The position numbers and the translations under genes are program-made. Positions 1,528 through 29,533 of a DNA stretch of 32,000 nt are shown here, piece after piece (within the stretch, counting starts at the first letter, position 1; every line of letters starts with the position of its first letter). The notes beneath the pieces were generated by a model. The model made no database searches. It was not told where the DNA came from and saw only the letters and a program-made list of their open reading frames with translations. The stretch comes from Edaphobacter aggregans (GTDB taxonomy: Bacteria > Acidobacteriota > Terriglobia > Terriglobales > Acidobacteriaceae). The stretch is from positions 1,020,001 through 1,052,000 of the forward strand of contig NZ_RSDW01000001.1 in NCBI RefSeq assembly GCF_003945235.1, given 5' to 3'.

Positions 1528-1707
1528 AAAGCGTCAGCACATAAGGAACCTAAGCAAAATGAAATGAGTACTTTACAAAACCAGACCTGCGAATCCAGAG
1601 ACTTTCCGTATCACGGAACCCACAAGTCCAGATCTAAAGTATCTGCATTGAATACTTTGCACAAAATCGCACCCTCGGGGGAGTATCCTCTACAATCGGA
1701 CAAAGCC

Positions 1708-2403: not shown

Positions 2404-2494
2404 TCCCACTTCGGAACACGCCTCAACAAAAATCACCGAAACACCTGATGATCACGACGAATTGCCTCTACCGTAGCAAGTGGAGGCATACGAA

Positions 2495-2686
2495 ATGTAC
2501 CGCAAGAAGAGGTGCCCAACCTGCACCTCGAACCAAATCCGCCGCTCGCACCGCCGCGCCATCGAGAAAGCTCTGCTCTTCCTGTTCCCTCGCATCGTGC
2601 CGCACCGCTGCAACGAGTGCAGCCGCCGCTTCTACATCCTGAACCTCCGCTCGAACCGACAGAGCTCTCTCGAACAGAGCATCTGA
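2495..2686 (+). CDS. Small zinc-ribbon-like protein (63 aa, two CxxC pairs)
   Basis: ATG 2495 lies 8 nt downstream of GGAGG (2482-2486). The product MYRKKRCPTC...HRCNECSRRF has CPTC and CNEC pairs and is basic. Its C-ending codon style matches the flanking genes. Confidence 0.55.
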   Translation: MYRKKRCPTCTSNQIRRSHRRAIEKALLFLFPRIVPHRCNECSRRFYILNLRSNRQSSLEQSI

Positions 2687-2732
2687 CGCCGGGCAAGCAT
2701 CTTCAGCCCGCCTCCGATAAACTAGAAGGGAC

Positions 2733-3806: not shown

Positions 3807-3880
3807 ATCCGCAAATCTCCGGCGGAGATCGCAACCGCATAGTGCATACTGTGTTGACAAGGTTGACCGCCGGAGACCCC

Positions 3881-5740: not shown

Positions 5741-5774
5741 GCTGCTGGTACCCAGCTATTGAAAGCATCAAACT

Positions 5775-6842
5775 TCATTGTGAAGAAGCCGACGATCCAG
5801 AGGAAGAAAGGCCTCCGGAGGATGCCTGGGTTTGCTGGAGGAGACGATATCCATCCCGAGTCCGTATGTGATACTTCTGCAGATCCTTCCCTACCAGCTT
5901 GACCGTGATCGAACGCCAGCCATGATTTGGATTTGGCTGAGGATAGTAACTGAGCGCATAGAGATGGGCCAAGTCATCACGGATGGAGGCAAACGCTTGC
6001 TTCTCATCTTTCCAATCCTTTGAAAAATAGGCTTTGCCACCAGTAGCCTTGCTCATTCTCTCAAAGACAGCGGTAGAAACCGGCTCCTCTTCCGCTTGCC
6101 GAGTGCTGATCATGTAAATGATCGTTCCGGTTGACTGGGCCAACTCCGCTACATCCTCAGGGGGTACCAGGCTGGCATTGTCAGGGCCATTAGAAAAGAC
6201 AACAATTGCCTTGCGCCCGGTCAATTGGGCTGCGTCCTTTACCGTCATCAAGAGGCAGTTATAGAGTGCTGCGTCATCACCGGCGACCGTATTACGCACT
6301 CCACGTAACACCTGGGAGCGGTCGGGGGTAAGCGCGGAGACCCGTGAGAGATCGCGGCTATAAGAATACAAGGCCACTTTGCTCACACCTTCCAATGACC
6401 GAATGAAATCGGCGATAGCATCCTGCGCGAATACAAATCCCCGGTACATGTAGTTACTGGTGTCAAAAAGAATAAATACATTAGCTCCGGCAACTGACGC
6501 TTGAAACTTTCCCTGGTCGCCCGTCATCTCCGGCGCAACTGGCTCTGATGCCTTGACCACACTCTGCGCTGAGTGACCGCTATCGGGTCCAATCAATCTA
6601 CGCGTGGGTTCGTTACCTTCTTCGAAAGTCGCGAGCTTTTCCGGAATCTTGTCCTCAACAATCTCAAAGTCTTCTGGACGAAGGCCGCTGACGTAGTTTC
6701 CCTTACGGTCAGTAACAGCTACATTCAGCTGCACCAGCACGACGTTCACACGAATACGTGACGCGTCATCCTGCGCCCCTGCCCCCCCGCCGAAGAAAAG
6801 AACTGAAGATGCACAGAGAAATAGAAAAACTCGCTTTGCCAT
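5775..6842 (-). CDS. Secreted VWA-domain protein, acidobacterial VWFA-related type (355 aa), paralog of 3881-5740
   Basis: ATG 6842 is preceded by AGGGGGA and gives the signal peptide MAKRVFLFLCASSVLFFGGGAGAQ. It has the same N-terminal module (VVLVQLNVAVTDRKGNYVSGLRPEDFEIVEDK) and a VWA core (VFILFDTSNYM ... IVVFSNGPDN ... IIYMISTR). It starts 7 nt after the stop of the upstream 1064-aa gene. Confidence 0.8.
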   Translation of the reverse strand: MAKRVFLFLCASSVLFFGGGAGAQDDASRIRVNVVLVQLNVAVTDRKGNYVSGLRPEDFEIVEDKIPEKLATFEEGNEPTRRLIGPDSGHSAQSVVKASEPVAPEMTGDQGKFQASVAGANVFILFDTSNYMYRGFVFAQDAIADFIRSLEGVSKVALYSYSRDLSRVSALTPDRSQVLRGVRNTVAGDDAALYNCLLMTVKDAAQLTGRKAIVVFSNGPDNASLVPPEDVAELAQSTGTIIYMISTRQAEEEPVSTAVFERMSKATGGKAYFSKDWKDEKQAFASIRDDLAHLYALSYYPQPNPNHGWRSITVKLVGKDLQKYHIRTRDGYRLLQQTQASSGGLSSSGSSASSQ

Positions 6843-6849
6843 GATCCCC

Positions 6850-9800: not shown

Positions 9801-10044
9801 TAGCAGCCATGCGCATAAAAGATCGCAATGGGCCGGGAATGATGATCGTCTCTACCTTGTCCACCCTTGGTGCGACCGGTGCCGCAACGGCAGAGGTGAC
9901 CGGTGCCGCAACAGCAGGTGTGCTAGGCCGGGCCGACGGATAAGGCGCAGGCACCTGGCCATCAGAGTAGCCGGACGAGCAAAGACACAGGCACGAAGAA
10001 AGAGCGAGAAGAAAAGCAAACGGACGAAAAGTAGGCTTCATCAC
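6850..10044 (-). CDS. Large exported hypothetical protein (1064 aa), probable lipoprotein; function unknown
   Basis: Uninterrupted 3.2-kb ORF. GGAAGAGG lies ~9 nt upstream of the ATG. The N-terminus MMKPTFRPFAFLLALSSC has a lipobox-like L-S-S-C. I recognise no catalytic motif. The composition is Leu/Ala/Glu/Arg-rich. Confidence 0.75.
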   Translation of the reverse strand: MMKPTFRPFAFLLALSSCLCLCSSGYSDGQVPAPYPSARPSTPAVAAPVTSAVAAPVAPRVDKVETIIIPGPLRSFMRMAAISQKVPVDDVLPLLARNVYMQGYQNGNQTEFLILLDRYVHQARELQILAGPSSTIRVASCDDAGTLVQILGYRLREGCGQKNVFLETANPERAFLTIDSGFPLTELEEALQKGTPFSYSYPVSKVPVLFTENDWITLGAGNRKNYGSVVDVLINDPTIARLYWGLAKNNAETRIVLHESLGLRRLLPYAAALDFYGNQISIRSGRVIVPGGANAEPVWKEMVGASPDSPGDFVAHLLAKDGGWMAAYFDVLSRVSHTQQEHLTQSPRMKRLYEAFRAPGADADATRGVFRQGPDLLVLFTRVEWEPNGDPHVPGNLEVWKQIFRQKTDSKIIRDWGKRAHSWDHPEQLLEGMTALTRVVTDSGPLQSYLMASELDSARPPEKRLSPETVRLLADRFSDFSSWYLIFTEFPELSDASIARFVNVADGVDGISNSTLRGNVLGAFQANVGLWQILARQGEIPKDQLDASWQKMIDPFAKISSTTQLFDAAHNSFGEILLAAGAKADSPQDQIVDLLAGPHQENPDGQRVHEELAGKIRAVLVDQHLVSIDTLFALSDGLSDMEQGRPRNEKMLGLAGELREFEMPRPIFTKSEKIDWAPRVYSTHHAELQVQTDLSKVIKTPSTHAQLEAARGQLAPFLRDTLVGLNYAYYEPPGAQILHNNPLFIRAHDFSGISMIGSERLWQAPVLLGVGTPAGGGAYLMGSLADLPYALAMAEQDFIAPENIQALIWKELVPDLLVSATLPRWWAVSPNELHAAALYQRSGEELLVASTKDVQLRGKVISILSDRMSPQRLEETEHALQRGEDPAAIRLRMMPSETFYLAAEFRTRFPGEATSLGPAGQQLESLSQQYPAEVSYERLSRDFGVPHPTLARTYSRELLNVKPFPFFGAYSSRLFGESWESGNLYWARLTDEMGYSPVMLNRLAPELTRRMTAKIFATDLEDWPAMLRAMEETGEELRQGKIALPPMANATTSLERTVRDGYAQ
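9874..9912. repeat. Short in-frame tandem repeat (15-nt identical core, 24-nt period) inside the 1064-aa gene
   Basis: GACCGGTGCCGCAAC occurs at 9874-9888 and again at 9898-9912. It encodes the AVAAPVTS/AVAAPVAP duplication in the Pro/Ala-rich linker after the signal peptide. Confidence 0.7.
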
Positions 10045-16153: not shown

Positions 16154-16723
16154 ATGCCTCACATTCAACTACCCGAAGGACTACCTGGCATCCGCGGCGC
16201 AATGGCCTTCCGGCCTGAAACAGCGAAGCCTCTTAACGAGCTGGTTGAGATTCTCCTCCACGGGCCCAATTCCCTCTCGCCAGGAGAGCGCGAACTCATC
16301 GCAACCTACGTCTCATCAGAGAACGATTGCTACTACTGCCAAACAATCCACGGCTCAATTGCAGCCGCCAGCCTGAACGACGATGAAGCCCTCGTGAAGA
16401 AGGTTAAGCATGATTTTCAGAGTGCCGCTGTCTCCGACAAATTGAAGGCACTCCTCGTCATCGCTGGGCAGGTGCAAAAGGGCGGCAAGCACGTTACAGC
16501 AGAAGCTGTCGCGCACGCCCGCGATATCGGCGCAACCGATTTCGAAATCCATGACACTGTCCTGATAGCCGCTGCCTTCTGCATGTTTAACCGTTATGTC
16601 GATGGCCTTGACACGACGCAACCAAGAGACGAAGCGATGTATCGTGAACGTGGCAAGCGTGTCGCTCGTGAAGGATACGTTACTGTCAGTAAAGAATATC
16701 TACCCGCGGAAGTTTCTAGCTAA
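16154..16723 (+). CDS. Carboxymuconolactone decarboxylase (AhpD-like) family, peroxidase-related protein, 189 aa
   Basis: CxxCxxxH redox motif (NDCYYCQTIHG). The MPHIQLPEGLPGI N-terminus and overall layout resemble the uncharacterised peroxidase-related CMD subfamily. AAAGGA lies upstream. Confidence 0.8.
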   Translation: MPHIQLPEGLPGIRGAMAFRPETAKPLNELVEILLHGPNSLSPGERELIATYVSSENDCYYCQTIHGSIAAASLNDDEALVKKVKHDFQSAAVSDKLKALLVIAGQVQKGGKHVTAEAVAHARDIGATDFEIHDTVLIAAAFCMFNRYVDGLDTTQPRDEAMYRERGKRVAREGYVTVSKEYLPAEVSS

Positions 16724-16754
16724 AACATCAACAACACCCAGAGGATCAGCGAAC

Positions 16755-17324
16755 ATGCCACACATATCACTTCCTGAAGGGTTGCCAGGCATCAGCAGCG
16801 GCTTCGCATTCCGTCCCGAAACGGCCAAGCCAATGCGCGAGCTGGCTCACATCCTTCTGCACGGACCCAGCACTCTGACACCGGCAGAACGCGAACTGAT
16901 TGCAACCTACGTATCGAGTCAGAATGATTGCTATTTCTGCCAGACGAGCCACGGCGCTGCCGCAGCCGCTCATCTCGGCGATGACTCGACTCTTGTGGAG
17001 CAAGTAAAACAGGACTTTCTTCATGCCGACATTTCGGACAAGCTCAAAGCGCTCCTCGTAATCGCGGGCCAAGTCCAAAAAGGCGGCAAGAATGTCCTGC
17101 CACACAGCATAGGAAAAGCGCGCCGGGAAGGTGCGACTGACCTTGAGATCCATGACACCGTACTCATTGCTGCGGCCTTCTGCATGTACAACCGTTATGT
17201 CGATGGGCTCGCCACATGGCAGCCCCGCGATCCGGCTATGTATTCCAGCGTGGGAGAACACCTCGCCACACATGGATACCTAACGCCTTCAGTGAAGGCC
17301 CCAGCTCTGGAGGTTACGAAATGA
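16755..17324 (+). CDS. Tandem paralog of the CMD/AhpD-like protein, 189 aa
   Basis: Same length as its neighbour and roughly two-thirds identical to it by eye (MPHISLPEGLPGI..., NDCYFCQTSHG, DKLKALLVIAGQVQKGGK). GAGGA lies upstream of ATG 16755. The ORF-track start at 16596 is rejected. Confidence 0.8.
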   Translation: MPHISLPEGLPGISSGFAFRPETAKPMRELAHILLHGPSTLTPAERELIATYVSSQNDCYFCQTSHGAAAAAHLGDDSTLVEQVKQDFLHADISDKLKALLVIAGQVQKGGKNVLPHSIGKARREGATDLEIHDTVLIAAAFCMYNRYVDGLATWQPRDPAMYSSVGEHLATHGYLTPSVKAPALEVTK

Positions 17325-17768: not shown

Positions 17769-19091
17769 TCAAAAAAAGGATGCTGCAAGAAAAATCCTGA
17801 TCTGTCGAACAAGCTGAAGTTTCGACATTCGCCAGTAAAGACCGCGCCCAATGGTGTCAACGCTGGCACAACTGTGTGAGGCGAAACGAGAGACCAAGTA
17901 AACGAAGTATTGCAGATAGGGGTGTAGTTCGCGTGATTGCGTCGCTCGATCGCTGACCATTCGAACCAATGGCGTATTCATCCGCGCGAAGTGGGTGGGG
18001 ATTAAAGTTCGTTTAAGCAGTTTTAATTTTGCCATAGGGGATTTCAGAAAGCTCATGTGGAGCCATAGGAAATCCTTATTCATATGCGACATATCTTCAA
18101 TGGAAGACATCGCAAAACGGCGCAACCATTGCCGCTGCAATGATGGCAAACTTTCGATTGCTTTCAGAACGTGTGGGTTGAGATTGCAACCAAACAAAGA
18201 TCGAGCGTAGTAGAAAGCGATTGCCTCACAGGATTGAAGAGTAGCATCATGTGTCTCGGACCAGGCCGCCCAGAAGGTATCATCTTCGGCTCGACGATGA
18301 AGAAAAATAGCCAACTCGTAAACGTGATGAAGGATCGTATCTCGCAGGAAAATATTCCGCAGTATATGAAGAGCAAGATAACCGAGGTTATCGACAGGGG
18401 AAAGAGAAGTAAAGGTAAAACCATCGATGGCCCTCATGGTGCGTCGATCCCAGAAACGGTCGATCGCAGCTACGTGAAAATAGGAAACGGATCGGTTCCA
18501 AAGGCAGAAGTGCAACTCGATGGAAAGTGGCATCTCAGGATCGAATGAATTTTCTCTCCAGCGCCAGTCGCCCATACGATTCATGGTGCGATCATGGTCG
18601 GCGTAGGTGTAGCTCTGTTGGTCGTTCGGGGTGTAACCAATTCCTTGCAAGGCGATTCGCGCGGATTTGATCATCTCTGGTGGACAGTAAAGATCAAGAT
18701 CGGATTGTGCTCGCAGACGCGGGTCTTCAACATAGTCAGGAGCCTGAGTGAATCCCTTAATCACAACATGGTTGACTCCCGCCCTGTCGAGCGCTTCTGC
18801 TGCTTCCCTGTAGGTGGCCTTTACGCGCTCGAAGCGCAAGGCGTTGTCAGCGACGTTCGTCTTGAGCCTTTCGACAACCCACGATGGAAAGCCGTCTTTT
18901 GGAAGCTGTGCAAGCGATAGCGTCAGGTGCCCCAGGTCGCAAAACGCGAGCAGGCTGCCCCACTCATGATCTTCCAACTGCGCCAATGATGCTATATCCG
19001 GTTCGCGCAGATGAAGTGCCCTTATGAGAGCAGCGACCGCTCGAGGGACCTTCAAAGGAGACACGTCAGATGTAATCGTGTGTGCATTCAT
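17769..19091 (-). CDS. Uncharacterised nucleotidyltransferase family protein (NTP_transf_5-like), 440 aa
   Basis: The core VVIKGFTQAPDYVEDPRLRAQSDLDLYCPPEMIKSARIALQGIGY ... SIELHFCLW matches my recollection of the PF14907 pattern (KG...R...D[IL]DL...GY...ELH). Confidence 0.7.
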   Translation of the reverse strand: MNAHTITSDVSPLKVPRAVAALIRALHLREPDIASLAQLEDHEWGSLLAFCDLGHLTLSLAQLPKDGFPSWVVERLKTNVADNALRFERVKATYREAAEALDRAGVNHVVIKGFTQAPDYVEDPRLRAQSDLDLYCPPEMIKSARIALQGIGYTPNDQQSYTYADHDRTMNRMGDWRWRENSFDPEMPLSIELHFCLWNRSVSYFHVAAIDRFWDRRTMRAIDGFTFTSLSPVDNLGYLALHILRNIFLRDTILHHVYELAIFLHRRAEDDTFWAAWSETHDATLQSCEAIAFYYARSLFGCNLNPHVLKAIESLPSLQRQWLRRFAMSSIEDMSHMNKDFLWLHMSFLKSPMAKLKLLKRTLIPTHFARMNTPLVRMVSDRATQSRELHPYLQYFVYLVSRFASHSCASVDTIGRGLYWRMSKLQLVRQIRIFLAASFF

Positions 19092-19210
19092 AGAAGGTCT
19101 ACGCCCTTAAGTGTCAATTTCGGTAGCGCAGGTACAAAGTAGAACGAGAATTTGGTATCGAGGTCGGAGACGACAAGGTTGTGGTCGTCGGCGATACAGT
19201 CGAGCCGCAT
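19088..19210 (-). CDS. Micro-ORF (40 aa, MRLDCIADDHNLVVSDLDTKFSFYFVPALPKLTLKGVDLL); possible precursor peptide or truncated PqqD/RRE-like remnant
   Basis: The ATG lies 4 nt after the cupredoxin stop, and its TGA overlaps the nucleotidyltransferase ATG (ATGA). An alternative upstream ATG at 19252 with GGAAG gives 54 aa. There is no homology evidence. Confidence 0.35.
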   Translation of the reverse strand: MRLDCIADDHNLVVSDLDTKFSFYFVPALPKLTLKGVDLL

Positions 19211-19214
19211 AACC

Positions 19215-19577
19215 CTAGTCCGTGACGTGAACGGTAAAGACCATCGATCCATGGCCGCTTCCGCAAAATCTTCCGCACACCCCATGGAAGTCTCCGGAGC
19301 GATTTGGCGCGACAGTCACATCGACCGGGTGTCCCTTGAGCATTTCTTGCTTGATGTGCAGGTCGGGAACAACAAGACTATGAGCAACATCGTCGGAGAT
19401 CAGTCGAAGTTTGACGGTCTCTCCTTTCTTTAGCCTGATTTCGGCGGGGGAAAAGGCAAACCGATGCGCATGTATCTCGATGGTGCGAATCTGCTCCTGC
19501 GCCAACGATGTTGATGCTTCTCGTATGACAAGACCAAGCATCAACATCGCAGGCAAGACTCTCCGTATCCACTTCAC
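19215..19577 (-). CDS. Secreted cupredoxin-fold protein with CuA-type ligand motif, 120 aa (GTG start)
   Basis: Signal peptide MKWIRRVLPAMLMLGLV...SLAQ. The C-terminal HGVCGRFCGSGHGSM matches H...C-x3-C-x3-H-x2-M copper ligand spacing. AGAGGA lies 7 nt upstream of the GTG. Confidence 0.75.
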   Translation of the reverse strand: MKWIRRVLPAMLMLGLVIREASTSLAQEQIRTIEIHAHRFAFSPAEIRLKKGETVKLRLISDDVAHSLVVPDLHIKQEMLKGHPVDVTVAPNRSGDFHGVCGRFCGSGHGSMVFTVHVTD

Positions 19578-19703
19578 TGTTCAATCCTCTATTTCCGTTT
19601 TCAACCTATCGGTACTTGTTAATCTCTATGGGCCCGGTCGGACAAAGAGACCTTCAGATATGCCGATCGGCTGTCCGACGGTCAAGTAGACTGGCACTCC
19701 AAG

Positions 19704-19719
19704 GACTTCGAACGAAGTC
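19704..19719. promoter_or_regulatory. Inverted repeat GACTTCG-aa-CGAAGTC in the divergent intergenic region (candidate operator)
   Basis: Perfect 7-bp arms at 19704-19710 and 19713-19719. Confidence 0.3.
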
Positions 19720-19761
19720 GAGTATAGGAACTATCGAAACTCGATTTGTCACTGCAATGTC

Positions 19762-19772
19762 GACAATTTGTC
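19762..19772. promoter_or_regulatory. Inverted repeat GACAA-t-TTGTC, with further GACAA/TTGTCA copies nearby (candidate operator)
   Basis: Palindrome at 19762-19772. Related copies are TTGTCA at 19746-19751, CGACAAAGTCG at 19808-19818 and TGACAAAT at 19819-19826. Confidence 0.25.
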
Positions 19773-19840
19773 AAAGTCTTTAGCGTGACGAACTTCGCGC
19801 CAAATCCCGACAAAGTCGTGACAAATAGAACGACGCGGCT

Positions 19841-19855
19841 GGTCAATACTTGACC
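19841..19855. promoter_or_regulatory. Inverted repeat GGTCAA-tac-TTGACC (candidate operator overlapping a -35-like TTGACC)
   Basis: Perfect 6-bp arms at 19841-19846 and 19850-19855. Confidence 0.25.
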
Positions 19856-20110
19856 TGTATTCCTAATTCCATAACGAAGCGCTGAGGCGAGATCAAGAAT
19901 CGTTCACTGGCAGGATGCTCTCAAATAGGCCGAATTGGATTCGGCTTCTGGCGAGTGGTTCATAAACTTCCCAGAGCCCCGGGGAAGGCAATCGTACGAT
20001 ACTTCTGGTCTGTCACGACACAAGGTAACAAAAGACATTCTCCTGATAAGCACCATGAGTCAGAGCTTTAGAGTCGAGTTGCATTTCAACATTTCGGAGA
20101 GACAACAACC

Positions 20111-23100
20111 ATGCTTACCCTGTCACGATGCACGACCGTCGTTACACTGATCAGCGCTCTGGCTGTAACAGCCATGTACGGACAGGCTCCTGGAACCGGC
20201 GCCATAAACGGCCGCGTCTTTGATGCAGCACGATTGCCCATCGTGAACGCGCAGATATTTGTAGTGAACGAATCAACGCACACATCGAGAATAGTTGCTA
20301 CCACTGCTGAAGGCTTCTTTTCGGCGCCTCTGCTTACCCCGGGATCTTATTCGGTGACAGTGCAACAACCCGGCTTTGAAGGGAAAGAAGCACAGAAAAT
20401 TCTCGTAGCAGTGGGGGAGATAACTTCACTTGCGTTCACTTTATCGGTCGCGCAACACCATGAGACTGTGCAGGTGAACGCGGATGTAGAACTTGTGCAG
20501 GCGCAGAGCGCGACCCTGGGCCGCTCCGTAGATGACCGGGCCATCCAGGCCTTGCCTCTCGCAAATCGCAACTTCACGCAGATTCTTTCGCTTTCTCCAG
20601 GAGTCATTGTCTCGCTGCCCGATGCCACAACTCTTGGACGGGGCACCCAGAACGTCGCTACCAACGGAAATAAAACGACAGCCAACAATATTCAGTTCAA
20701 TGGCATTGATGCCAACAATCTTTCGCAAAACTCTGCTGAGAGCGACGGCGAAGAAGTGGGTGTCGCTGTTCCAGCCCCCGACTCCATTCAGGAGTTCAAG
20801 GTACAGACTGCAAATTACGATGCCACGTATGGCCGTGGTACCGGTGCAAACGTAGATTTGGTGAGCAAGGCTGGAACAAATCAGTTTCACGGCAGTGCAT
20901 GGGAGTTCATTCGAAATGACATCTTCAACGCCAACACGTTTTTTCTAAAGCGTTCCGGCCAACCTCGCCCGGTGCTCAAGCAGAACCAATTCGGGGTCTC
21001 GCTCGGTGGCCCGATTTTCAAAGACAAGACCTTTTTCTTTGCCGCCTATCAAGGACTCCGCTCCAGCAATGGCCTTGGCAACACTTCGACTGTTTTTCTA
21101 CCGCAGTTGACCTCCGATCGATCCGCCGCGACGCTTGGAGCTGAGTTCTGCTCGTCGGGGCCGACGAACGCTGGCGGAACGCAACTGGCCTGTGATGGCT
21201 CCAACATTAATCCTGTAGCGCTGAAACTGCTCAATTTCAAATTCTCGAATGGCCAGTTCGCTGTGCCGGCTCCGCAGATACTGCTTCCGGAAACTCCCGG
21301 ACAGACACCTATCGGCCAAAGTACATTCTCGATCCCGGCAACCTATAAGGAGGACCAGTTCACCGGAAATCTGGATCAGACGATTGCCGCCAAGGATCAG
21401 GTGATGGCCCGATTCTTTTACTCCCACGCTCCTACGATTCAACCATTCTCTTCAAATGCTGCGAATTTACCTGGATGGGGAACAAATGAGCTAGATCAAA
21501 ACGCCATGCTGGTTCTGGGATACACCCATGTCTTTAATTCGAACATGGTGAATCTCGCGCGGTTTGGCTATATGCGCTTCGATGGAATCGCGTCCATTGC
21601 CGCTCCCATCTCGACCGCCGATATTGGAACTCAGTCGCCTTTGGGTGTCTCAAGTACGAACGTTACCGCGCCCTACATCAGTGTCAATGGGTTATTCATT
21701 GTTGGCGCAATAACCCCTTTTCAAGACCAAGTCACCAACACGTTTGTCTGGCAGAATACGCTTTCGATGACGAGCGGGCGCCATTCTCTGCGCATCGGTG
21801 TCGAAGCAAAACATCATCAGGTCATGGTGAACCCGCCATTCGGCATTGCAGGTGCCATAGAGACGCGGACCTTCAATGATTTTCTGCTTGGTCAGAGTGC
21901 CGCGCAGAATGGGAGCCCGAACGGACTCAGCAATGTGCAATTGAGTAATGGCGCTTCAGGAATCTTTCGAAGGGATGAACGTTACAACGATTTAGCCGCA
22001 TTTGTGCAGGATGACATTCGTCTCTCCTCACGGGTATCCATCTTTGCTGGCATACGATACGAGATCTTCGGTGCTCCTACAGAGGAAAACGGACGACTTG
22101 CGATCTTCGATCCCTCTATAGCGTCACCCACCGCGCCTCCAAGTGGAACTTTCAGCGGGTTTGCAGTTACGAACAACTTTCCGGGCGCCATACCTGATGG
22201 CGTCCTTCGTCTGAATCGCAATGGCCTATGGCCTAACAACTACTTCAATATTTCACCGCGAATAGGCTTTGCTGTTCGGCTTACAGATAGGCCAACAATC
22301 TTGGTACGCGGTGGTTATGGAATCTACTTCGATCGATTATCGGCGGGGCTAGTAGAGAACCTGGTAAATCAACCTCCATTCGCACTAACACAAACTCTCT
22401 CAGATGCACAGAATGGCGCCGCAACTGAACAGCAGCCATTCAATCCGATACTGCCTCCAACGAGCAGTTATCCAATCTTCATGCCGCGCGTCCCGGGCGG
22501 AGCTCAGTCACTCTTTCAGGTTGACCCCAACGTTACCGATCCTTACACGCAGGAATACAACCTGAACATCCAGTCCTCATTCGCTCGCGACTATCTGTTT
22601 GAAGTGGGCTATGTGGGAACTCGCTCGCTGCATATTCCTGGAGGGGTCGAATTCAATCAGGCTCTCCTTGCAAGCCCTCAACATCCAATCAATGGAGAAA
22701 CTACAAATACCGTTGCTAATATCACGAACCGTTTACCCTTTGATGGCGTAAGCACTGGGTCGATTATCTTTCAAACCCGGTTTCCATCGAACTTCAACTC
22801 ACTGCAGACGAGTCTCACCAAACGCATCAGTCATGGCTTACAGTTTCTCGCCGGCTACACGTGGTCGAAGAGTATGGACGAGACGAGCGGCACTGGAGGC
22901 AGCGAAGTCTTTGAAGAGTGGCTGTTATCGAACGATCAGAACAACCCTCGACAGGCCTATGGCCCCACAGATTTTGATCGCACCCATCGCTTCGTATTCA
23001 GTCTTGTCTATCAAACACCATCTTTTTCTTCAGCCCCCCGCCTGACTCGAAATATATTGGGCAACTGGCAGGCATCGGCAATTGCCGTTGCACAGTCGGG

Positions 23101-23542
23101 ATCAGCCCTGACAATTCTGGACAGCAACGCGGGACTGGTCTATGGGAACTTTGAAAACCGCGCGCAGAGACCTACTTCCAATCCATTAACACCGGGTTCG
23201 GTCTACGATCGCGCGTTGGGGCACTATCTGGATGCCAACGCGTTCCCTTCCGCTCCCATGGCTCCCAACGGAGTAACAGCGTCGGATACAGATTTCGGCA
23301 ACAGCAGTACTGGCTTCTTGCGCGGCCCCGGCCAGCGCAATCTCGATCTGGCGCTGGAACGTTCCTTCCCGATCTTTGAACGGATGACCTTTCACTTCCG
23401 CACGGAGTTCTTCAATATTACGAACACCCCTAACTTTGCGAATCCGAACAACAATCTCAGCTCAGGTCAGGCATTCGGAACAATAACTGGCACTTCAAAT
23501 AATCCACGCATCATTCAGTTTGCGGGAAAAATCCTCTTCTAG
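20111..23542 (+). CDS. TonB-dependent outer-membrane receptor with N-terminal carboxypeptidase-regulatory-like domain, 1143 aa
   Basis: Signal peptide, then GAINGRVFDAARLPIVNAQIFVVNE...GSYSVTVQQPGFE (CarboxypepD_reg-like). Plug-like motifs follow (LPLANRNFTQILSLSPGV). A long beta-barrel region ends in the terminal aromatic ...QFAGKILF. Confidence 0.88.
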   Translation: MLTLSRCTTVVTLISALAVTAMYGQAPGTGAINGRVFDAARLPIVNAQIFVVNESTHTSRIVATTAEGFFSAPLLTPGSYSVTVQQPGFEGKEAQKILVAVGEITSLAFTLSVAQHHETVQVNADVELVQAQSATLGRSVDDRAIQALPLANRNFTQILSLSPGVIVSLPDATTLGRGTQNVATNGNKTTANNIQFNGIDANNLSQNSAESDGEEVGVAVPAPDSIQEFKVQTANYDATYGRGTGANVDLVSKAGTNQFHGSAWEFIRNDIFNANTFFLKRSGQPRPVLKQNQFGVSLGGPIFKDKTFFFAAYQGLRSSNGLGNTSTVFLPQLTSDRSAATLGAEFCSSGPTNAGGTQLACDGSNINPVALKLLNFKFSNGQFAVPAPQILLPETPGQTPIGQSTFSIPATYKEDQFTGNLDQTIAAKDQVMARFFYSHAPTIQPFSSNAANLPGWGTNELDQNAMLVLGYTHVFNSNMVNLARFGYMRFDGIASIAAPISTADIGTQSPLGVSSTNVTAPYISVNGLFIVGAITPFQDQVTNTFVWQNTLSMTSGRHSLRIGVEAKHHQVMVNPPFGIAGAIETRTFNDFLLGQSAAQNGSPNGLSNVQLSNGASGIFRRDERYNDLAAFVQDDIRLSSRVSIFAGIRYEIFGAPTEENGRLAIFDPSIASPTAPPSGTFSGFAVTNNFPGAIPDGVLRLNRNGLWPNNYFNISPRIGFAVRLTDRPTILVRGGYGIYFDRLSAGLVENLVNQPPFALTQTLSDAQNGAATEQQPFNPILPPTSSYPIFMPRVPGGAQSLFQVDPNVTDPYTQEYNLNIQSSFARDYLFEVGYVGTRSLHIPGGVEFNQALLASPQHPINGETTNTVANITNRLPFDGVSTGSIIFQTRFPSNFNSLQTSLTKRISHGLQFLAGYTWSKSMDETSGTGGSEVFEEWLLSNDQNNPRQAYGPTDFDRTHRFVFSLVYQTPSFSSAPRLTRNILGNWQASAIAVAQSGSALTILDSNAGLVYGNFENRAQRPTSNPLTPGSVYDRALGHYLDANAFPSAPMAPNGVTASDTDFGNSSTGFLRGPGQRNLDLALERSFPIFERMTFHFRTEFFNITNTPNFANPNNNLSSGQAFGTITGTSNNPRIIQFAGKILF

Positions 23543-23543
23543 C

Positions 23544-24599
23544 ATGCAAAAACACTCGCGAAACGGTAGAGAAGAACAGCGGTTGCTGACAATTCCAGAA
23601 ATCGAAGCTATATACGCAAGGTCGGAGCTGATACCTCCCACCGATCCTGTCTATGCTCGAATGGAGTTCCCCTTCAAGAGAAGGTTTTATCCACTCGGAT
23701 TTCCAGTAGATATATCTACGAATACGGAGGAGGTATTAGAGGCTGCCGCGCAGAGTTGGGCAACCTTCACAGAGGCCTTTCAGACTCCGCCCATCCGAAT
23801 CCAGATAGGCGTTATGGAAGGACTCTCTTCCGAGTGTCCTCCAGCACCAACGTGCCGGGTACAACAACATCTCTTTTCGTACGTTGCCGATCAAGAAAAC
23901 TTTGGCATGAATGATATGGCTCGCGGCTTTTCCTGTATCTGGCTGACGGAAGCGGCAGTGAGACACCGTAGTTACTTACGGCATTTCTTTCTCGATTGTG
24001 CGGTCTTTTGCCAGATTGCGACGCGATGCGCAACTGGAGTGCACGCAGCTTGCGTGATCCGCGACGGCATCGGAGTACTGTTGTGCGGCGACTCCGGCGC
24101 TGGGAAATCGACGCTGTCTTATGCCTGCGCCAAAGCTGGCTGGACCTACGTGACAGATGATCTGAGTTTTGTAATTCATGACCGCGACGACCGTTTGGTG
24201 TCAGGTAACTGCCATCAGTTACGTTTCCGACCATCCGCGGGCTCGATCTTCCCGGAGATTGAAGGCCGCGAGATCACGCAGCGCGCGGAAGTTGGCAAGC
24301 CATCGATTGAGTTAGGGGCAACGGCATTGCAAAACATAGACCGATCCCAGACAACCGAAATTAAATACGTAGTCTTCCTGAATCGGCGAGATGGCAACAA
24401 CGCGGCAATCAGGCCCTACTCAAAAGAAATCGCCAGGCATTTCATAGGACAAGGGCGATTCAGCCCACTGGATTTGATGCCTCGACATTACGAGGCTATT
24501 GACAGACTCCTTCAGGCGGACGTCCTGGAACTGCGCTATCGCGATCTCGATTGGGCGATTGAACAACTCGAAGCACTGGTGGAGACCGCGCGTCCATGA
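23544..24599 (+). CDS. HPr kinase/phosphorylase-like P-loop kinase (stand-alone HprK C-terminal-like domain plus unknown ~180-aa N-terminal domain), 351 aa
   Basis: VHAACVIRDGIGVLLCGDSGAGKSTLSYACAKAGWTYVTDD matches the HprK/P catalytic core pattern (HG-V-x-G-GVL-x-G-SG-GKS-x-L-G-LV-DD). The ATG is 1 nt after the receptor stop, and the TGA overlaps the MFS ATG. Confidence 0.75.
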   Translation: MQKHSRNGREEQRLLTIPEIEAIYARSELIPPTDPVYARMEFPFKRRFYPLGFPVDISTNTEEVLEAAAQSWATFTEAFQTPPIRIQIGVMEGLSSECPPAPTCRVQQHLFSYVADQENFGMNDMARGFSCIWLTEAAVRHRSYLRHFFLDCAVFCQIATRCATGVHAACVIRDGIGVLLCGDSGAGKSTLSYACAKAGWTYVTDDLSFVIHDRDDRLVSGNCHQLRFRPSAGSIFPEIEGREITQRAEVGKPSIELGATALQNIDRSQTTEIKYVVFLNRRDGNNAAIRPYSKEIARHFIGQGRFSPLDLMPRHYEAIDRLLQADVLELRYRDLDWAIEQLEALVETARP

Positions 24600-25888
24600 T
24601 TCCGGAGCGAACGGTGCACAAGGCTTCTGGTCGCGATCTCTCCCTATGGCAGCGCGCACAATCTCGCCTGCGGCACTTGCACAGTGGCTTCTGGACCTTA
24701 TATGCATCGTCATTTCTGATTGACCTCGGGCTTTGTCTTTATCTCTTCATGTTCAGCCTCTTTTTGGTGGAACATCACTTCACAGAGCGAGTCATCGGAT
24801 ACATCACTGCGGCTTTGACAATCGGCACCCTAGCCGGCACAGTGCCAAGCAGTCTCCTGGCAAAACGTCTGGGACTGCGGACCATGTTGGTGGTGTATAT
24901 CATCGCTGTTCCTCTGTGTTTTGCATCGCGTGTTTTCCTTCTACAGATGCCGGCACAGTTGTGGTTAGCATTCCTGAGCGGAATGGCGATGAGCATTTGG
25001 TCCGTATGCTTTTCTCCAACGCTTGCAAAACTAACAACGCACGAAAACAGAGCATTCGGTTTCAGCATATTTGTCGCTACAGGAATAGGCGCAAGTGCGC
25101 TGGCGGGGTTACTCGGCGGTTATCTTCCTGATCAGTTCCAGCGTCTCGGCCGAGCAGGTTCTCAAGTGGATGGAATCAGAATCGTACTGTTGCTGGCCTG
25201 CATCATCCTCGCTCTTGCCTTGTTTACGATACTCAAACTGCATTTACGTTTGGATGAAACCGGGCAGACGAGCGGCAAGGTGTTCAGCGGATTCCTTCTG
25301 CGCTTTCTGGTAGCCATTGCAGTTTGGAACTTCGCACTAAATTTCTTTACACCCTTTGCAAATGTTTATCTCTCAAGGCATCTTGGCCTTCCGGTGACGC
25401 GTATCGGAGCAATATTTTCGTCTTCCCAGCTGATGCAGGTGGCCGTCATCCTGATGGCTCCTCTTCTTTACCGCAGGGTGGGGCTTGTCACTGGACTTGC
25501 AATAACACAACTGGCCACCGCTTCGTTGCTTTGGGGACTTTCGCGGGCATCTGGACTGACGATCGCACCCTACATCTATCTGCTATTAGCATCGGTGCAA
25601 TGGACTGCTGGCCCTGGAATTGCTTCACTCTTAATGAATCGCACACCCGAGAAGCACAGAAGCCAGGCTACCGCGATCCAGAATATTGTGAATCTGGCAA
25701 CGCAAGCGGGCTCTGCGGCGCTAGCCGGAAAACTTTTTGAGCAATATGGATATTCCAGGCCGCTCGCAGCAAATGCAGGAATAGCCGTTCTGGCTGCCGT
25801 CCTGCTGTACACGCTGCTTGGGCGGAATAATCGAAATCATCGCATGGCGCAGACAGTATTGATGGAAAGCTCAGAAGTCCGGCCCTAA
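24596..25888 (+). CDS. MFS transporter, 430 aa
   Basis: About 12 hydrophobic helices, an MFS-like loop motif (LLAKRLGLRTML) and a central hydrophilic loop. The ATG overlaps the kinase stop (ATGA). Confidence 0.8.
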   Translation: MIPERTVHKASGRDLSLWQRAQSRLRHLHSGFWTLYASSFLIDLGLCLYLFMFSLFLVEHHFTERVIGYITAALTIGTLAGTVPSSLLAKRLGLRTMLVVYIIAVPLCFASRVFLLQMPAQLWLAFLSGMAMSIWSVCFSPTLAKLTTHENRAFGFSIFVATGIGASALAGLLGGYLPDQFQRLGRAGSQVDGIRIVLLLACIILALALFTILKLHLRLDETGQTSGKVFSGFLLRFLVAIAVWNFALNFFTPFANVYLSRHLGLPVTRIGAIFSSSQLMQVAVILMAPLLYRRVGLVTGLAITQLATASLLWGLSRASGLTIAPYIYLLLASVQWTAGPGIASLLMNRTPEKHRSQATAIQNIVNLATQAGSAALAGKLFEQYGYSRPLAANAGIAVLAAVLLYTLLGRNNRNHRMAQTVLMESSEVRP

Positions 25889-25938
25889 AGACCACAAAAA
25901 AACACGTTTAACCACTCGTAGATTGTGCGCGGCGACGA

Positions 25939-25972
25939 AAGCCGAGACCAGTGCCAGCGCACGTCTCGGCTT
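25939..25972 (+). terminator. Stem-loop downstream of the MFS gene (possible terminator, no U-tract)
   Basis: 10-bp perfect stem AAGCCGAGAC (25939-25948) / GTCTCGGCTT (25963-25972) with a 14-nt loop, 51 nt after the stop at 25888. Confidence 0.35.
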
Positions 25973-26126
25973 ACGGTCGATAGCGGCACGTTCATCTCAA
26001 AACGCAAGTGACAATCAATTGACAAAAAACAGACTCTTAGAGAACACATCCGAAGACGCGTATCGCTAATGTAATGCTATGCAGCGATCGATACTGAGCT
26101 TCTCTTTTCTAAATAGGATGCGGACT

Positions 26127-27131
26127 ATGAGGCGAATCGCTCTCGCTCTGGTTTTGTTTTGTTCTATGAGATACGGGACCGCACAAAACACGCCACTAAT
26201 CTCCGGCGGAGTTGGTTTTTTGACATCTACAAATGGTGGTAATACGACATATCTACCAATTATCGAACCTCTTTTCGCCGCTCCAATTGGTAACCATTTT
26301 TTTGTCGAATCGCGAGCGGCATTGGTCGAGGTCTTTTTCCCGAATGGCAATGGTTACGGCCACACCCATTCCATCGGGCTTACATATCTGCAGGGAGCCT
26401 ACCTCGCTTCTCCGCATATCACCGTAGTCGGCGGCAGCTTTCTAATTCCGTTTGGCACCTACAATGAGCGTCTATCCCCTGTATGGATCAACAATTTACA
26501 GGACGGGCCATTGATCTCCAGTCTGGGCACCATGTCTACTGGCACTGGTCTGGGCGGGATGATGCGCGGATCGGCCATCTCGCGACGTAAATACTCCATC
26601 GATTACGCCGCATACTTCTCCGCCTTAAGCCAAAACGAACAGTTCAATGCCAGGCGTTCCTCCGGTGGCCGGGTCAACCTTTACCTCCCCGAAAGTCGTC
26701 TGGAGATCGGGTTCTCTTATAACCGTCTACTGCAAGGCACGCAGGAGAACTTTTATGGCACACACGTTTGGTGGCAGCCAAAGAACACCGCCCTTCGCCT
26801 GCGCTCCGAGTTCGCACGCGGCGGTCACGCGCAGGGCTACTGGATCGAAGCCGACTATCGCTTGCAACGGTTCGGTGGCCCCGATAGTTGGATTGGCCGA
26901 ATCGAGCCCGTGTTCCGTATGCAACAAACTTTTCGCCTCGACACAAGCGCCAGCGACGGTCTCCCCCTTGTAAACACACAGCGGGCCGACTTCGGGTTGA
27001 ACTACAATCTGCCGCACAACACGAGAATACTTACCAGTTACTCAAGGCAGTTCTCTTCCACCGGCAATACCAATATCTGGGAGACAGGAATTGTCTATCG
27101 TTTCCTGTTTCCCGCCTGGAAAGGAAAATGA
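26127..27131 (+). CDS. Outer-membrane beta-barrel (porin-like) protein, 334 aa
   Basis: Signal peptide MRRIALALVLFCSMRYGTAQ. The rest shows alternating amphipathic, aromatic- and Gly-rich segments (YNLPHNTRILTSYSRQF, ETGIVYRF). The start at 26127 is chosen for AGGA 8 nt upstream; 26118 is also possible. Confidence 0.65.
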   Translation: MRRIALALVLFCSMRYGTAQNTPLISGGVGFLTSTNGGNTTYLPIIEPLFAAPIGNHFFVESRAALVEVFFPNGNGYGHTHSIGLTYLQGAYLASPHITVVGGSFLIPFGTYNERLSPVWINNLQDGPLISSLGTMSTGTGLGGMMRGSAISRRKYSIDYAAYFSALSQNEQFNARRSSGGRVNLYLPESRLEIGFSYNRLLQGTQENFYGTHVWWQPKNTALRLRSEFARGGHAQGYWIEADYRLQRFGGPDSWIGRIEPVFRMQQTFRLDTSASDGLPLVNTQRADFGLNYNLPHNTRILTSYSRQFSSTGNTNIWETGIVYRFLFPAWKGK

Positions 27132-27454
27132 CCATGCGCCAGAGATATCTTTTCGCTGGCTGCCTTGTCTTAGGGGCTGCCTTTACCACTTCGCTAGCTG
27201 AGTTACAGGCCCAATCGCGCCACACTCCACCACCCACCGCCCAAACAGACAAAAAACAGACGGCCTCCACACCAGGCTCTCAGCAGCAACAGAATGAGGG
27301 AGCGCGCATCTTCGAACAGAACTGCTCACGCTGCCACACAGCTCCGGATGGCTTCTCGCCACGTATCTCCGGTACGATCGTTCGTCACATGCGGATTCGG
27401 GCATCGCTCAGCCAACATGACGAACAGGAGCTACTGCGCTTCTTCAATCCATAA
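27128..27454 (+). CDS. Monoheme c-type cytochrome, exported, 108 aa
   Basis: Single CxxCH (EGARIFEQNCSRCH), an N-terminal signal sequence and a candidate distal Met (VRHM). The ATG overlaps the porin stop (ATGA), with AAGGA upstream. Confidence 0.75.
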   Translation: MTMRQRYLFAGCLVLGAAFTTSLAELQAQSRHTPPPTAQTDKKQTASTPGSQQQQNEGARIFEQNCSRCHTAPDGFSPRISGTIVRHMRIRASLSQHDEQELLRFFNP

Positions 27455-27559: not shown

Positions 27560-29533
27560 ATGACCAAACACAATATTAGCCAGGGACTTACGCGCCGGGA
27601 TCTCCTGCGCCTCTCAACCGCCGGAGCAACTGCATTAGGCGCTAAACTCGCATTTCCCGAGTGGGTCTCAGCAGCAGTCGAACAAAACGGCACTCCTCAG
27701 ACGGCCACAACCCTCTACGCCCAACTCCTGCAGACCTGGTGCGATGGTCTGCTCGAACATCAGGTCACAGAGATTCAGAATCCGGCCCTTCACGGAGCGC
27801 TTCTCTGCCCTGCCTGCGCGCTCATTCACGGACGCTGCGGTGACGCCGTCTACCCTCTTCTACGCGTAGCCCACACAACCGGTAACGCGAAATATCTCAA
27901 CGCAGCTCTCCTCGTGCACGAATGGTCAGAACGACAGGTAAGCCGCGCCGACGGTAGTTGGATCAACGACGTTACTCTCAGTTCGTGGAAAGGCATCACC
28001 GTCTTTCACGCCATCTCTCTCGCCGAAGCGCTCCGGCACCACAGCGCTCTCCTCGATACCGCCACCCACCAGCGCTGGACCAACCGCCTCGCCCGCGCTG
28101 CGAAATTCCTCGACACCTTCATCTCCATCGAAACCGGCAATATCAACTACCCTGTCACCTCCTCCTTCTGCTTCGCCCTATGCGGCCAGGTCCTCGGCAA
28201 CGACCACTATCTCGACCGTGCCCGCCAGCTAGCCCACACCACCCTCGATTACTTCACGCCCAACAACTTTCTCTACGGCGAGGGCCACCCCCTCAAAGGC
28301 CTTACTGCGAAACACTGCCATCCGGTCGACCTCGGCTATAACGTCGAAGAGTCCCTTCCCTCCCTCGCGCAGTACGCTCTACTCACCAACGACAAGCTCG
28401 TCCTAGATCAGACCATCGCCGCCCTACGCACCCACATGGAGTTCATGCTCCCCGACGGAGCCTGGGACAACAGCTGGGGCACCCGCAACTACAAGTGGAG
28501 TTGGTGGGGAAGCCGCACCAGCGACGGCTGTCATCCCGCCTACGTCCTCCTCGCGCCACACGAGCCAAAGTTCCGCGAAGTCGCCTACCGCAATCTCGAA
28601 TTCATGGCCGCCTGCACCCACAACAATCTCCTCTACGGCGGTTCCGACTACTTCGCCCATGGCGACCTTCCCTGCATCCACCACACCTTCACCCACGCCA
28701 AAGCCCTGGCAACCGTACTCGATAGCGGCGCCGACGACCTTGTCCCCGCACCGCGCCTCACACTCCCACGCGACGAACCCTACGGCGTCAAAACTTATCC
28801 CGAGATCGGTACTCATCTCGCCGCCATCGGCCCGTGGCGCGCCACCGTCACCGACTACGACTGGGAATACGTCGAACACGTCCAATCCGGCAGCGGCGCA
28901 TCAGGCGGAGGCCACGTCTCGGGCGGAACCCTCTCCCTCCTCTTCCATCGCCAACTCGGCCCCATCCTTACCGCCAGCATGACCGAGTACCAGATGATCG
29001 AAATCTCCAATCAACAAACCTTCGGCGACTACCCCCACATGTCACTCGCCCCACGCATCGAGCTCATCAGCGACAAGACCTACACCAGCACAACCGACTT
29101 CGCCGCAACTCTGACCTCCACCAGCACACCAGCGAAAATCACCTTCGACGCCAGCGGTCGCCTGCTCACCGCCGCTCACCAACCACCGTCGACAGGAGAC
29201 CTGCACTACCACCTCACATACCGTCTCAACGACACCGCCATAGAAATCGAAGCCACCGCCGACGCCGCAGTTCCCCTCCCCGCCCCGTTGCGTTTCATCC
29301 TTCCCGTCATCTCACGATCCACCGAATCCATCAATCAAACCGACCCCAAAACCATTCGCATTGCCAAACCAGGCGGAACTCTTATCGTCCGCACCGACGC
29401 TCCCCACGGCTTCGAACTGATACCGAACGAACGAACATTCAATCTAGTTCCAGGCTTCGAGTGCGCTCCTCTAACAATCGCCATGCAACCCAGCAAGCCG
29501 ATCCGAATTCAAATGGAATCTCAGCTCCCGTAG
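27560..29533 (+). CDS. Tat-exported hypothetical protein, alpha/alpha-toroid-like N-terminal part plus beta-rich C-terminal part, 657 aa
   Basis: Twin-arginine signal (GLTRRDLLRLSTAGATALGA...VSA). Two DG[SA]W motifs (RADGSWIND, LPDGAWDNSWG) are reminiscent of prenyltransferase/squalene-oxidase-type repeats. There is also a Cys cluster, CPACALIHGRC. The function is not assignable by eye. Confidence 0.7.
   Translation: MTKHNISQGLTRRDLLRLSTAGATALGAKLAFPEWVSAAVEQNGTPQTATTLYAQLLQTWCDGLLEHQVTEIQNPALHGALLCPACALIHGRCGDAVYPLLRVAHTTGNAKYLNAALLVHEWSERQVSRADGSWINDVTLSSWKGITVFHAISLAEALRHHSALLDTATHQRWTNRLARAAKFLDTFISIETGNINYPVTSSFCFALCGQVLGNDHYLDRARQLAHTTLDYFTPNNFLYGEGHPLKGLTAKHCHPVDLGYNVEESLPSLAQYALLTNDKLVLDQTIAALRTHMEFMLPDGAWDNSWGTRNYKWSWWGSRTSDGCHPAYVLLAPHEPKFREVAYRNLEFMAACTHNNLLYGGSDYFAHGDLPCIHHTFTHAKALATVLDSGADDLVPAPRLTLPRDEPYGVKTYPEIGTHLAAIGPWRATVTDYDWEYVEHVQSGSGASGGGHVSGGTLSLLFHRQLGPILTASMTEYQMIEISNQQTFGDYPHMSLAPRIELISDKTYTSTTDFAATLTSTSTPAKITFDASGRLLTAAHQPPSTGDLHYHLTYRLNDTAIEIEATADAAVPLPAPLRFILPVISRSTESINQTDPKTIRIAKPGGTLIVRTDAPHGFELIPNERTFNLVPGFECAPLTIAMQPSKPIRIQMESQLP

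Follow-up and report, generated by a model that had tools for sequence, protein, structure and literature searches.

The lasso-peptide clusters of paeninodin and pseudomycoidin combine a P-loop kinase resembling HPr kinase with a putative nucleotidyltransferase; the kinase has been reported to phosphorylate a C-terminal serine, and the nucleotidyltransferase to attach hexoses to that phosphate (PMC8498205). Two further families with likeness to the kinase studied here, HPr-rel-A (TIGR04352/TIGR04353) and SynChlorMet ScmC (TIGR04249, PF27840), were defined in peptide-modification cassettes. Described systems of another kind are the porin-cytochrome conduits (e.g. Cyc2 with rusticyanin, and MtoAB/PioAB), where a barrel is coupled to a c-type cytochrome. 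Here we report on a gene set with features in common with both, present on a 32,000-nucleotide stretch of the Edaphobacter aggregans genome (RefSeq assembly GCF_003945235.1, contig NZ_RSDW01000001.1, positions 1,020,001 to 1,052,000 of the forward strand), hereafter referred to as the window. It is very probable that these genes constitute a real, co-regulated set of two modules and not a biosynthetic cluster for peptides that are ribosomally synthesised and then post-translationally modified (RiPPs). Module R, a putative envelope redox module, comprises an outer-membrane beta-barrel, a minimal monohaem cytochrome c and a secreted CuA-type cupredoxin, with a second cytochrome c in relatives. 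Module K, which would act in the cytoplasm, comprises a kinase of the predicted HPr kinase/phosphatase (HprK/P)-phosphoenolpyruvate carboxykinase (PEPCK) fold and a PF14907 nucleotidyltransferase (NT); here, the kinase gene is positioned between those of a TonB-dependent receptor (TBDR) and a major facilitator superfamily (MFS) permease.

The set recurs, in shuffled order, in many species. One genome per GTDB species was searched, which gave 423 kinase-encoding stretches, and the best 80 of these were analysed by mapping the window proteins onto them and clustering all open reading frames (ORFs); all 80 belong to Acidobacteriaceae, other Terriglobales or unclassified metagenome-assembled genomes (MAGs) of Acidobacteriota. 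Flank counts were taken from the 57 loci having full 10-kb flanks. The receptor gene is located directly upstream of the kinase gene in 43 and the MFS gene directly downstream in 51, the NT and barrel genes lie within 10 kb in 30 and 35, respectively, and in 55 of the 57 loci module R, the NT gene or a regulator operon (see below) is found near the kinase gene. The arrangement varies: in a Telmatobacter locus (L001) a cupredoxin-cytochrome c-NT operon diverges from a barrel-cytochrome c-TBDR-kinase-MFS operon, another locus (L002) is colinear (cupredoxin-NT-TBDR-kinase-MFS), and in a third (L086), which has neither receptor nor MFS, the genes for barrel, cytochrome c, cupredoxin, cytochrome c, kinase and NT lie in one array, with 4, 58 and 5 nt between the last four called genes. 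A stand-alone kinase gene is situated 3 kb from the barrel/cytochrome pair in Terriglobus saanensis and Granulicella WH15, both beside a Wza-Wzi-Wzz exopolysaccharide (EPS) locus; no locus tags of the gene set were found in the Granulicella WH15 omics supplement.

An initial annotation of the window had drawn attention to six ORFs between 17769 and 25888, in two divergent operons, and had left room for a coincidental juxtaposition of unrelated operons. Each gene family is indeed common in Acidobacteria by itself, but the two operons are found together, reordered, in many genomes, and because the same genes recur shuffled in dozens of species and share a common cis-element we give the coincidence next to no credence. 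The same annotation took the flanking genes to be unrelated, which did not hold on the right flank: its boundary at 25888 was too narrow, and the genes for the barrel (26079-27131, plus strand) and the minimal cytochrome c (27128-27454, plus strand; 108 aa; CSRCH...HMR), which are joined by an ATGA overlap, belong to the same conserved, box-sharing set. All six ORFs were found at the coordinates given for them, and the five large ones are real genes. Its view that they represent an undescribed multi-gene system has stood as well: the set is conserved, and a literature search with partial coverage of journals found no published description of it.

The cis-element is a direct repeat phased at 11 bp, TGACAA-N5-TGACAA, carried by all three transcription units of the window. 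A perfect copy (TGACAA tcaat TGACAA; 26009-26025, plus strand) is located upstream of the barrel gene, and the same variant precedes the barrel orthologue in Terriglobus, Granulicella and many MAGs. The 533-bp intergenic region between the divergent operons (19578-20110) holds two more. One, CGACAA agtcg TGACAA (19808-19824, plus strand), faces the TBDR operon and is conserved in the closest MAG (L003). The other, the degenerate three-half-site sequence TGACAA attgt CGACAT tgcag TGACAA (19746-19773, minus strand; two overlapping matches with two mismatches each), faces the cupredoxin/NT operon; perfect equivalents precede the cupredoxin gene in loci of the L001 type. This region had been called a repeat-rich control region, and the repeats do exceed chance, as the exact pattern GACAA-N6-GACAA occurs at two sites in the window (19809-19824 and 26010-26025) compared with 0.03 expected. 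The related loci, 1.65 Mb in total, hold 114 exact copies versus approximately 2 expected from base composition (about 50-fold), with at least one exact box in 62 of 85 loci; of the 101 non-redundant sites, 94 lie upstream of a gene start at a distance of no more than 400 bp. The genes preceded by a box are mostly those for the barrel, the cupredoxin, the NT, the kinase and an OmpR-type response regulator; further boxes precede EPS genes (Bac_transf, a Bac_transf-GT4 fusion and Wzx/WecG), an ABC exporter and B12-binding radical-SAM genes. A scan for sigma-70 promoters was uninformative (1 match versus 7.9 expected). A riboswitch-controlled uptake locus was also considered and rejected, since the Rfam scan of the control regions gave no credible riboswitch.

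About half of the loci contain a four-gene regulator operon that carries the box itself and encodes an OmpR/PhoB-type regulator, a sensor kinase (dCache_3, HAMP and HisKA), a 514-aa outer-membrane protein and a protein whose C-x2-H-x2-M motif resembles that of type-1 copper sites. Direct repeats spaced one helical turn apart are the usual type of site for the OmpR/PhoB family, and we infer that the two-component system of this operon controls the whole set. The best NCBIfam model for the regulator is PhoB, with 198 bits against a cut-off of 296 and with RpaB and MtrA nearly tied, which raises the question of whether the set is a Pho-like phosphate-starvation regulon, with the box as Pho box and with the receptor, the MFS permease and a periplasmic GDPD protein importing phosphodiesters. 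Read on the opposite strand the box (TTGTCAt-N4-TTGTC) has what we take to be Pho-box architecture, a gene for a secreted GDPD+HEAT protein comes after the MFS gene in 17 of the 57 loci, and the permease has a weak PgtP-type match. The regulator score is, however, under the PhoB cut-off, the large periplasmic dCache domain makes the sensor unlike PhoR, no pst, phoU or phosphatase genes are present in any locus, and cupredoxins and cytochromes c are not members of the Pho regulon. Taken together, a Pho-like regulon appears highly improbable.

Turning to the individual proteins, the family assignments made initially for the NT, cupredoxin, TBDR, kinase and MFS permease were all supported by profile searches, albeit with the kinase below threshold when taken alone. 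The kinase gene (23544-24599, plus strand) encodes a protein scoring 31.5 bits on PF07475 (threshold 33.3); its best NCBIfam matches are TIGR04352 (51.3 bits, cut-off 200) and TIGR04249 (32 bits, cut-off 125), both far below cut-off, and the precomputed annotation carries the Pfam ScmC domain PF27840. The family profile matches the HprK/P structure 1ko7 (E=2.4e-5), and the AlphaFold model, which is confident (pLDDT, the predicted local distance difference test, 85), gave Foldseek matches to ATP-dependent PEPCK over both domains (E=5e-8) and also to the catalytic domain of HprK/P (E approximately 1e-6). The Walker A and acidic motif CGDSGAGKS...TDD is invariant in an alignment of 20 relatives, and a GxSGxGKS Walker A together with a conserved DD within a PEPCK/HprK fold places the protein in the HprK/P-PEPCK superfamily. 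On the basis of the invariant motif, the profile match to HprK/P and the match of the model to PEPCK and HprK/P, it is predicted to be an HprK/PEPCK-fold P-loop kinase. Within the family the cysteines C98, C170 and C181 are invariant and C104 and C195 nearly so; C98 and C104 are part of a CPPxPxC motif in the N-terminal domain, which is unusual for a cytoplasmic kinase, and the conserved cysteines suggest a possible metal or redox site.

The kinase gene is flanked by the gene for the 1143-aa TBDR (20111-23542, plus strand) and the gene for the 430-aa MFS permease (24596-25888, plus strand). The TBDR has matches to OMP_b-brl_4 (681 bits), CarboxypepD_reg (62.6 bits) and Plug (24.1 bits; gathering score 23.9), i.e., the plug and C-terminal beta-barrel of a TonB-dependent transporter, and the permease scores 99 bits on MFS_1. 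In PDB sequence and profile searches, the TBDR showed no similarity to solved structures, copper and iron receptors included, and the permease gave a marginal match to EmrB only. Of the gene junctions described initially, the 4-nt gap and the ATGA overlap of the leftward operon, the ATGA overlap between the kinase and MFS genes, and the 533-bp intergenic region were all recovered. The 1-nt gap between the TBDR and kinase genes was not: it hinges on ATG 23544, and the true kinase start is probably TTG 23583, from which the translation (MLTIPE...) agrees with the N-termini of homologues (MLTIxEI) and which is preceded by a purine-rich stretch. The gap would then be 40 nt, compared with 32-43 nt in relatives, and the junction between the kinase and MFS genes is nearly always abutting or overlapping in relatives.

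The NT gene (17769-19091, minus strand) encodes a 440-aa protein having no signal peptide that matches PF14907 (NTP_transf_5) with 117.9 bits (E=7e-34; gathering score 31.2). The motif K-G...D-x-D (K112, G113, D131 and D133) shows no variation across 18 cluster-linked homologues, so both the score and the G...DxD motif assign the protein to this family; a PDB sequence and profile search gave no match. Its sequence agrees at 100% with a protein of E. aggregans, a species of Acidobacteriaceae (Terriglobales). The window NT is 80% identical to that of the closest MAG, L003, compared with 91-97% for the receptor, kinase, MFS and cupredoxin, and the lower value reflects either faster evolution of the NT or its exchange.

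Between the NT and cupredoxin genes lies the 40-aa micro-ORF (19088-19210, minus strand), which had been listed among the six genes and which is probably not a gene. It has no match in Pfam or NCBIfam, and with tblastn a counterpart was detected in L003 only, a near-identical MAG in which the start codon ATG is replaced by ACG. Relatives hold a gene for a 160-175-aa cytochrome c at this position; the possibility that the micro-ORF is a remnant of it was rejected, as residual similarity is not detectable.

The presence of the kinase and the NT had led to the initial framing of the locus as one with RiPP-tailoring enzymes, and this framing was not supported. The window kinase and NT share with the lasso pair the linkage of an HPr-kinase-like P-loop kinase to a nucleotidyltransferase and the proposed two-step logic, phosphorylation of a hydroxyl and then decoration of the phosphate. 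The window set has, unlike lasso clusters, no precursor, B1/B2, C or D genes, and the pair is instead linked to a TonB receptor, an MFS permease, a CuA cupredoxin, cytochromes c and EPS genes; the likeness to PadeK and PsmK/PsmN is one of description only. Moreover, no conserved small ORF that could encode a precursor peptide is present in more than 80 loci (the few short ORFs scored as conserved are box translations or antisense frames), and Pfam searches of the window ORFs of at least 150 aa and the six cluster ORFs gave no PF05402 (PqqD/RRE), PF13471 (transglutaminase-like) or PF00733 (asparagine-synthetase-like) protein. The last two absences, of the cyclase and of the leader protease, had already been noted and stand for the window ORFs of at least 150 aa. 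In contrast to the HPr-rel-A and ScmC cassettes the window kinase has neither an adjacent PqqD partner nor a radical-SAM/SPASM maturase; with 51.3 of the 200 bits required on TIGR04352 and no PqqD-like gene, the locus is not of the HPr-rel-A type. As judged from its gene content, the set is thus not a RiPP biosynthetic cluster.

A related possibility is tailoring of a peptide or protein encoded elsewhere, with the kinase phosphorylating a serine and the NT phosphoglycosylating it. The nearest characterised relatives of the enzyme pair act on lasso precursors, the ScmC signature and the weak TIGR04352 and TIGR04249 matches point to families from peptide-modification cassettes, an ABC exporter gene is positioned directly upstream of the receptor gene in some relatives, and clusters of B12-radical-SAM and methyltransferase genes adjoin the kinase gene in several genomes. 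The absence of a conserved small ORF, of a PqqD/RRE protein, of a cyclase and of a leader protease counts against it, as do the micro-ORF, which is unconserved and has lost its start codon in L003, the distance of the kinase from the HPr-rel-A and ScmC cut-offs, and a whole-protein fold that is as like PEPCK, a small-molecule kinase, as it is like HprK/P. Tailoring of this kind therefore appears clearly improbable.

In five loci (L038:11177-18834, L084:17105-21050, L085:16563-21026, L086:1-5932 and L088:1-7953), two to four B12-binding radical-SAM genes adjoin the kinase or NT gene, and these are loci where the kinase or NT is found without receptor and MFS. The clusters include S-adenosylmethionine-dependent methyltransferases, an amidohydrolase, and GT28/GT87 glycosyltransferases or an acyltransferase, and in L038 and L086 a box marks the cluster junction. 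They may make a lipid, a glycolipid or a peptide.

With respect to module R, the cupredoxin gene (19215-19577, minus strand) encodes a secreted, stand-alone protein of 120 aa with Pfam matches to COX2 (41 bits) and Cupredoxin_1 (40 bits) and a CoxB-like match in NCBIfam. The CuA motif pointed out initially is complete: the ligands H...C-x3-C-x3-H-x2-M (H66, C101, C105, H109 and M112) are invariant across 14 homologues, and the protein is accordingly classified by its motif as CuA-type with a predicted copper site. The barrel, for which a signal peptide is seen by eye, is the best conserved member of the set (55-80% identity across genera); its homologues are secreted proteins of 335-350 aa, and the family is small, with 639 representatives in 1.8 billion proteins. 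The window protein is assigned to no Pfam family and gave no match in a PDB sequence and profile search; remote members of its family reach the Pfam thresholds for OMP_b-brl and Porin_O_P, from which a beta-barrel fold is inferred. A relationship of the barrel to the 514-aa outer-membrane protein of the regulator operon (c6) was considered, and hhalign showed the two to be unrelated.

Natural fusions of the barrel to a C-terminal minimal cytochrome c of the same type (P0257 and P0290; NCxRCH...HMRxRA) provide what we regard as Rosetta-stone evidence for a predicted porin-cytochrome pair. In a more distant clade, for which 68 metagenome loci were fetched, the barrel and cytochrome c genes are followed in 21 loci by a gene for a 145-aa protein homologous to the window cupredoxin (hhalign 96%, E=1e-9) with the CuA motif kept, and no kinase or NT gene is present near the barrel, cytochrome c and cupredoxin genes in these 68 loci. 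Since barrel, cytochrome c and CuA cupredoxin occur there without the kinase, module R would be the older unit, which in Acidobacteriaceae appears to have been joined to and co-regulated with module K. In the distant clade (L089-L156, e.g. L090:4411-4788) the trio is followed by a conserved, secreted, cysteine-containing protein of 125-131 aa with a weak DUF5818 match, and next to it is a convergent gene for a PMT_2/ArnT-like glycosyltransferase; GT2 and MacB/HlyD transporter genes are found in the vicinity.

As in the known porin-cytochrome conduits, the predicted barrel of the set is genetically coupled to a c-type cytochrome, with which it is fused in certain relatives, and a periplasmic cupredoxin and a cytochrome c are encoded alongside. 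The cytochrome domain of Cyc2 is N-terminal. Here, in contrast, the cytochrome has a gene of its own or is fused at the C-terminus, and the likeness to Cyc2 is by description; compared with the rusticyanin-type conduit the cupredoxin is CuA-type and not type 1, and nothing was seen that links the set to a terminal oxidase. As a tentative proposal, the barrel, the minimal cytochrome c and the CuA cupredoxin may form an unrecognised type of outer-membrane porin-cytochrome conduit, split or fused to a C-terminal haem domain, in abundant soil Acidobacteria. In Acidobacteriaceae it would have come under one two-component regulator with EPS genes and with a kinase/NT pair used outside RiPP chemistry; the substrate of the pair would in that case be a protein or a small molecule taken up from outside, and not a ribosomal peptide.

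The redox proteins might instead serve copper or iron handling, which comes near the initial reading of a secreted peptide or metallophore with the cupredoxin as copper partner: the receptor would import a metal or metallophore, the cupredoxin and cytochromes c would be partners in the periplasm for metal redox or chaperoning, and the kinase and NT would process or recycle the ligand. Known analogies are MbnT/MbnP/MbnH beside TonB receptors, CopI/CopJ in cop clusters, and Cyc2 with rusticyanin in Fe(II) oxidation. Such a role would suit a regulon that has, besides a TonB receptor, cupredoxins of two kinds, two cytochromes c and a pair of outer-membrane proteins. Further points in its favour are weak NCBIfam matches to CopI (E=5e-4) and cytochrome-579 (E=1.6e-3), the barrel/cytochrome fusions, which recall fused cytochrome-porins, and a regulator of the OmpR family, to which CopR and CusR belong. 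Neither the window nor the examined loci were found to hold a gene for a multicopper oxidase, P-type ATPase, CusCBA, siderophore or methanobactin, however, and Pfam searches of the window ORFs and conserved neighbours revealed none of the siderophore, methanobactin and chalkophore families (MbnA/B/C, or the NRPS [non-ribosomal peptide] and NIS [NRPS-independent siderophore] synthetases). In addition, the outer-membrane proteins show no visible Met/His-rich motifs, no similarity of the receptor to solved copper or iron receptors was detected, the regulator scores 153 bits on the heavy-metal model and thus lower than on PhoB, and the sensor is of the dCache type and not CusS-like. We consider metal handling unlikely.

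The explanation that we favour, with a probability of roughly 0.45 for the composite as a whole, is a two-component-controlled regulon of Acidobacteriaceae in which modules R and K combine import, modification and envelope chemistry with an electron path. A periplasmic signal would act through the dCache-type sensor kinase and the regulator to switch on the whole set, and the receptor and permease would bring a solute into the cytoplasm. The kinase would phosphorylate the imported solute, or a protein serine, and the NT may then cap the phosphate with a nucleotidyl or glycosyl group, after the model of the lasso-peptide relatives of the pair. The product would feed cell-envelope or EPS chemistry, which we consider probable because EPS genes are often embedded in the set and preceded by the box, and module R would pass electrons between the outer membrane and the periplasm. 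Uptake operons with TonB receptor, permease and kinase, and Lic-type decoration pathways, are analogues. With these uptake operons and Lic-type import/kinase/nucleotidyltransferase pathways the set has in common the receptor-kinase-permease logic with translational coupling, and its NT and EPS genes belong to one regulon; the folds are here PEPCK/HprK and PF14907 instead of APH-like and GlmU-like, and the kinase is also found without transporters.

An import-and-modify pathway for exogenous peptides had been one of the readings offered initially, by analogy with TonB receptors linked to lasso-isopeptidase loci. The tight TBDR-kinase-MFS operon fits import and modification; the analogy was not upheld, as no peptidase of the lasso-isopeptidase type was matched by Pfam in any scanned window or neighbour ORF, and a lasso-isopeptidase import locus was rejected. 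A defence system was rejected as well, the NT, kinase, MFS permease, cupredoxin and barrel having no PADLOC match.

Several observations weigh against the favoured regulon. The regulator and sensor genes are absent from the window. Orthology of the NT is loose between loci, the window protein being only about 20% identical to most cluster-linked NTs, and near NT relatives are also found without the kinase. The AlphaFold model of the barrel is unusable (pLDDT 33; shallow alignment of 75-80% identical sequences). Finally, the kinases of Terriglobus and Granulicella have no receptor, MFS or NT gene within 10 kb, and because the kinase occurs without transporters in these genera and in L086, import is not essential to its function; in some lineages, this one included, the receptor and MFS permease have been added on either side of the kinase.

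Each of the protein families is already known; their combination was not found described and fits no family tested. Under one box the set brings together a PF14907 enzyme, a CuA cupredoxin that stands alone, a porin-cytochrome that is split or fused, and a kinase of the HprK/PEPCK fold encoded between a TBDR and an MFS permease. Acidobacteriaceae are among the most abundant soil bacteria, and for most of their conserved gene sets a function has yet to be assigned; here, a regulon with a clear cis-element, a candidate regulator and a cultivable host (E. aggregans DSM 19364) provide handles. If the kinase/NT pair works outside RiPP chemistry, the known scope of both enzyme families widens, which would also be relevant to the orphan cassettes of the HPr-rel-A and ScmC types. 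The trio, if it is an electron conduit, would represent a new extracellular redox route in acidic soils and peat, with iron, manganese, copper and humic substances as candidate partners.

Some further features were noted in and around the set. The G+C content is 0.50-0.54 across the cluster region (18001-27000) compared with 0.58-0.63 at 1-6000 and 28001-29000. A gene for ribBA (DHBP synthase and GTP cyclohydrolase II, of riboflavin synthesis) is positioned between the barrel/cytochrome pair and the kinase gene in T. saanensis (L084:11443-12657) and near a box in another locus (L055:7009-8214); this linkage was seen in two lineages only and may be due to chance. To the right of the set, the 657-aa product of the ORF at 27560-29533 bears a twin-arginine signal (RRDLLRLS) and matches nothing in Pfam or NCBIfam; the ORF is kept in L003 only, has no box and probably lies outside the set. 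To the left, two tandem carboxymuconolactone-decarboxylase (AhpD-like) paralogues are encoded at 16154-17324; their longest ORFs overlap by approximately 130 nt, and the second probably starts further downstream. Two large ORFs, 3842-5740 (632 aa) and 5775-10044 (1064 aa), have no Pfam match, and the latter is translationally linked to a gene for a VWA-domain protein.

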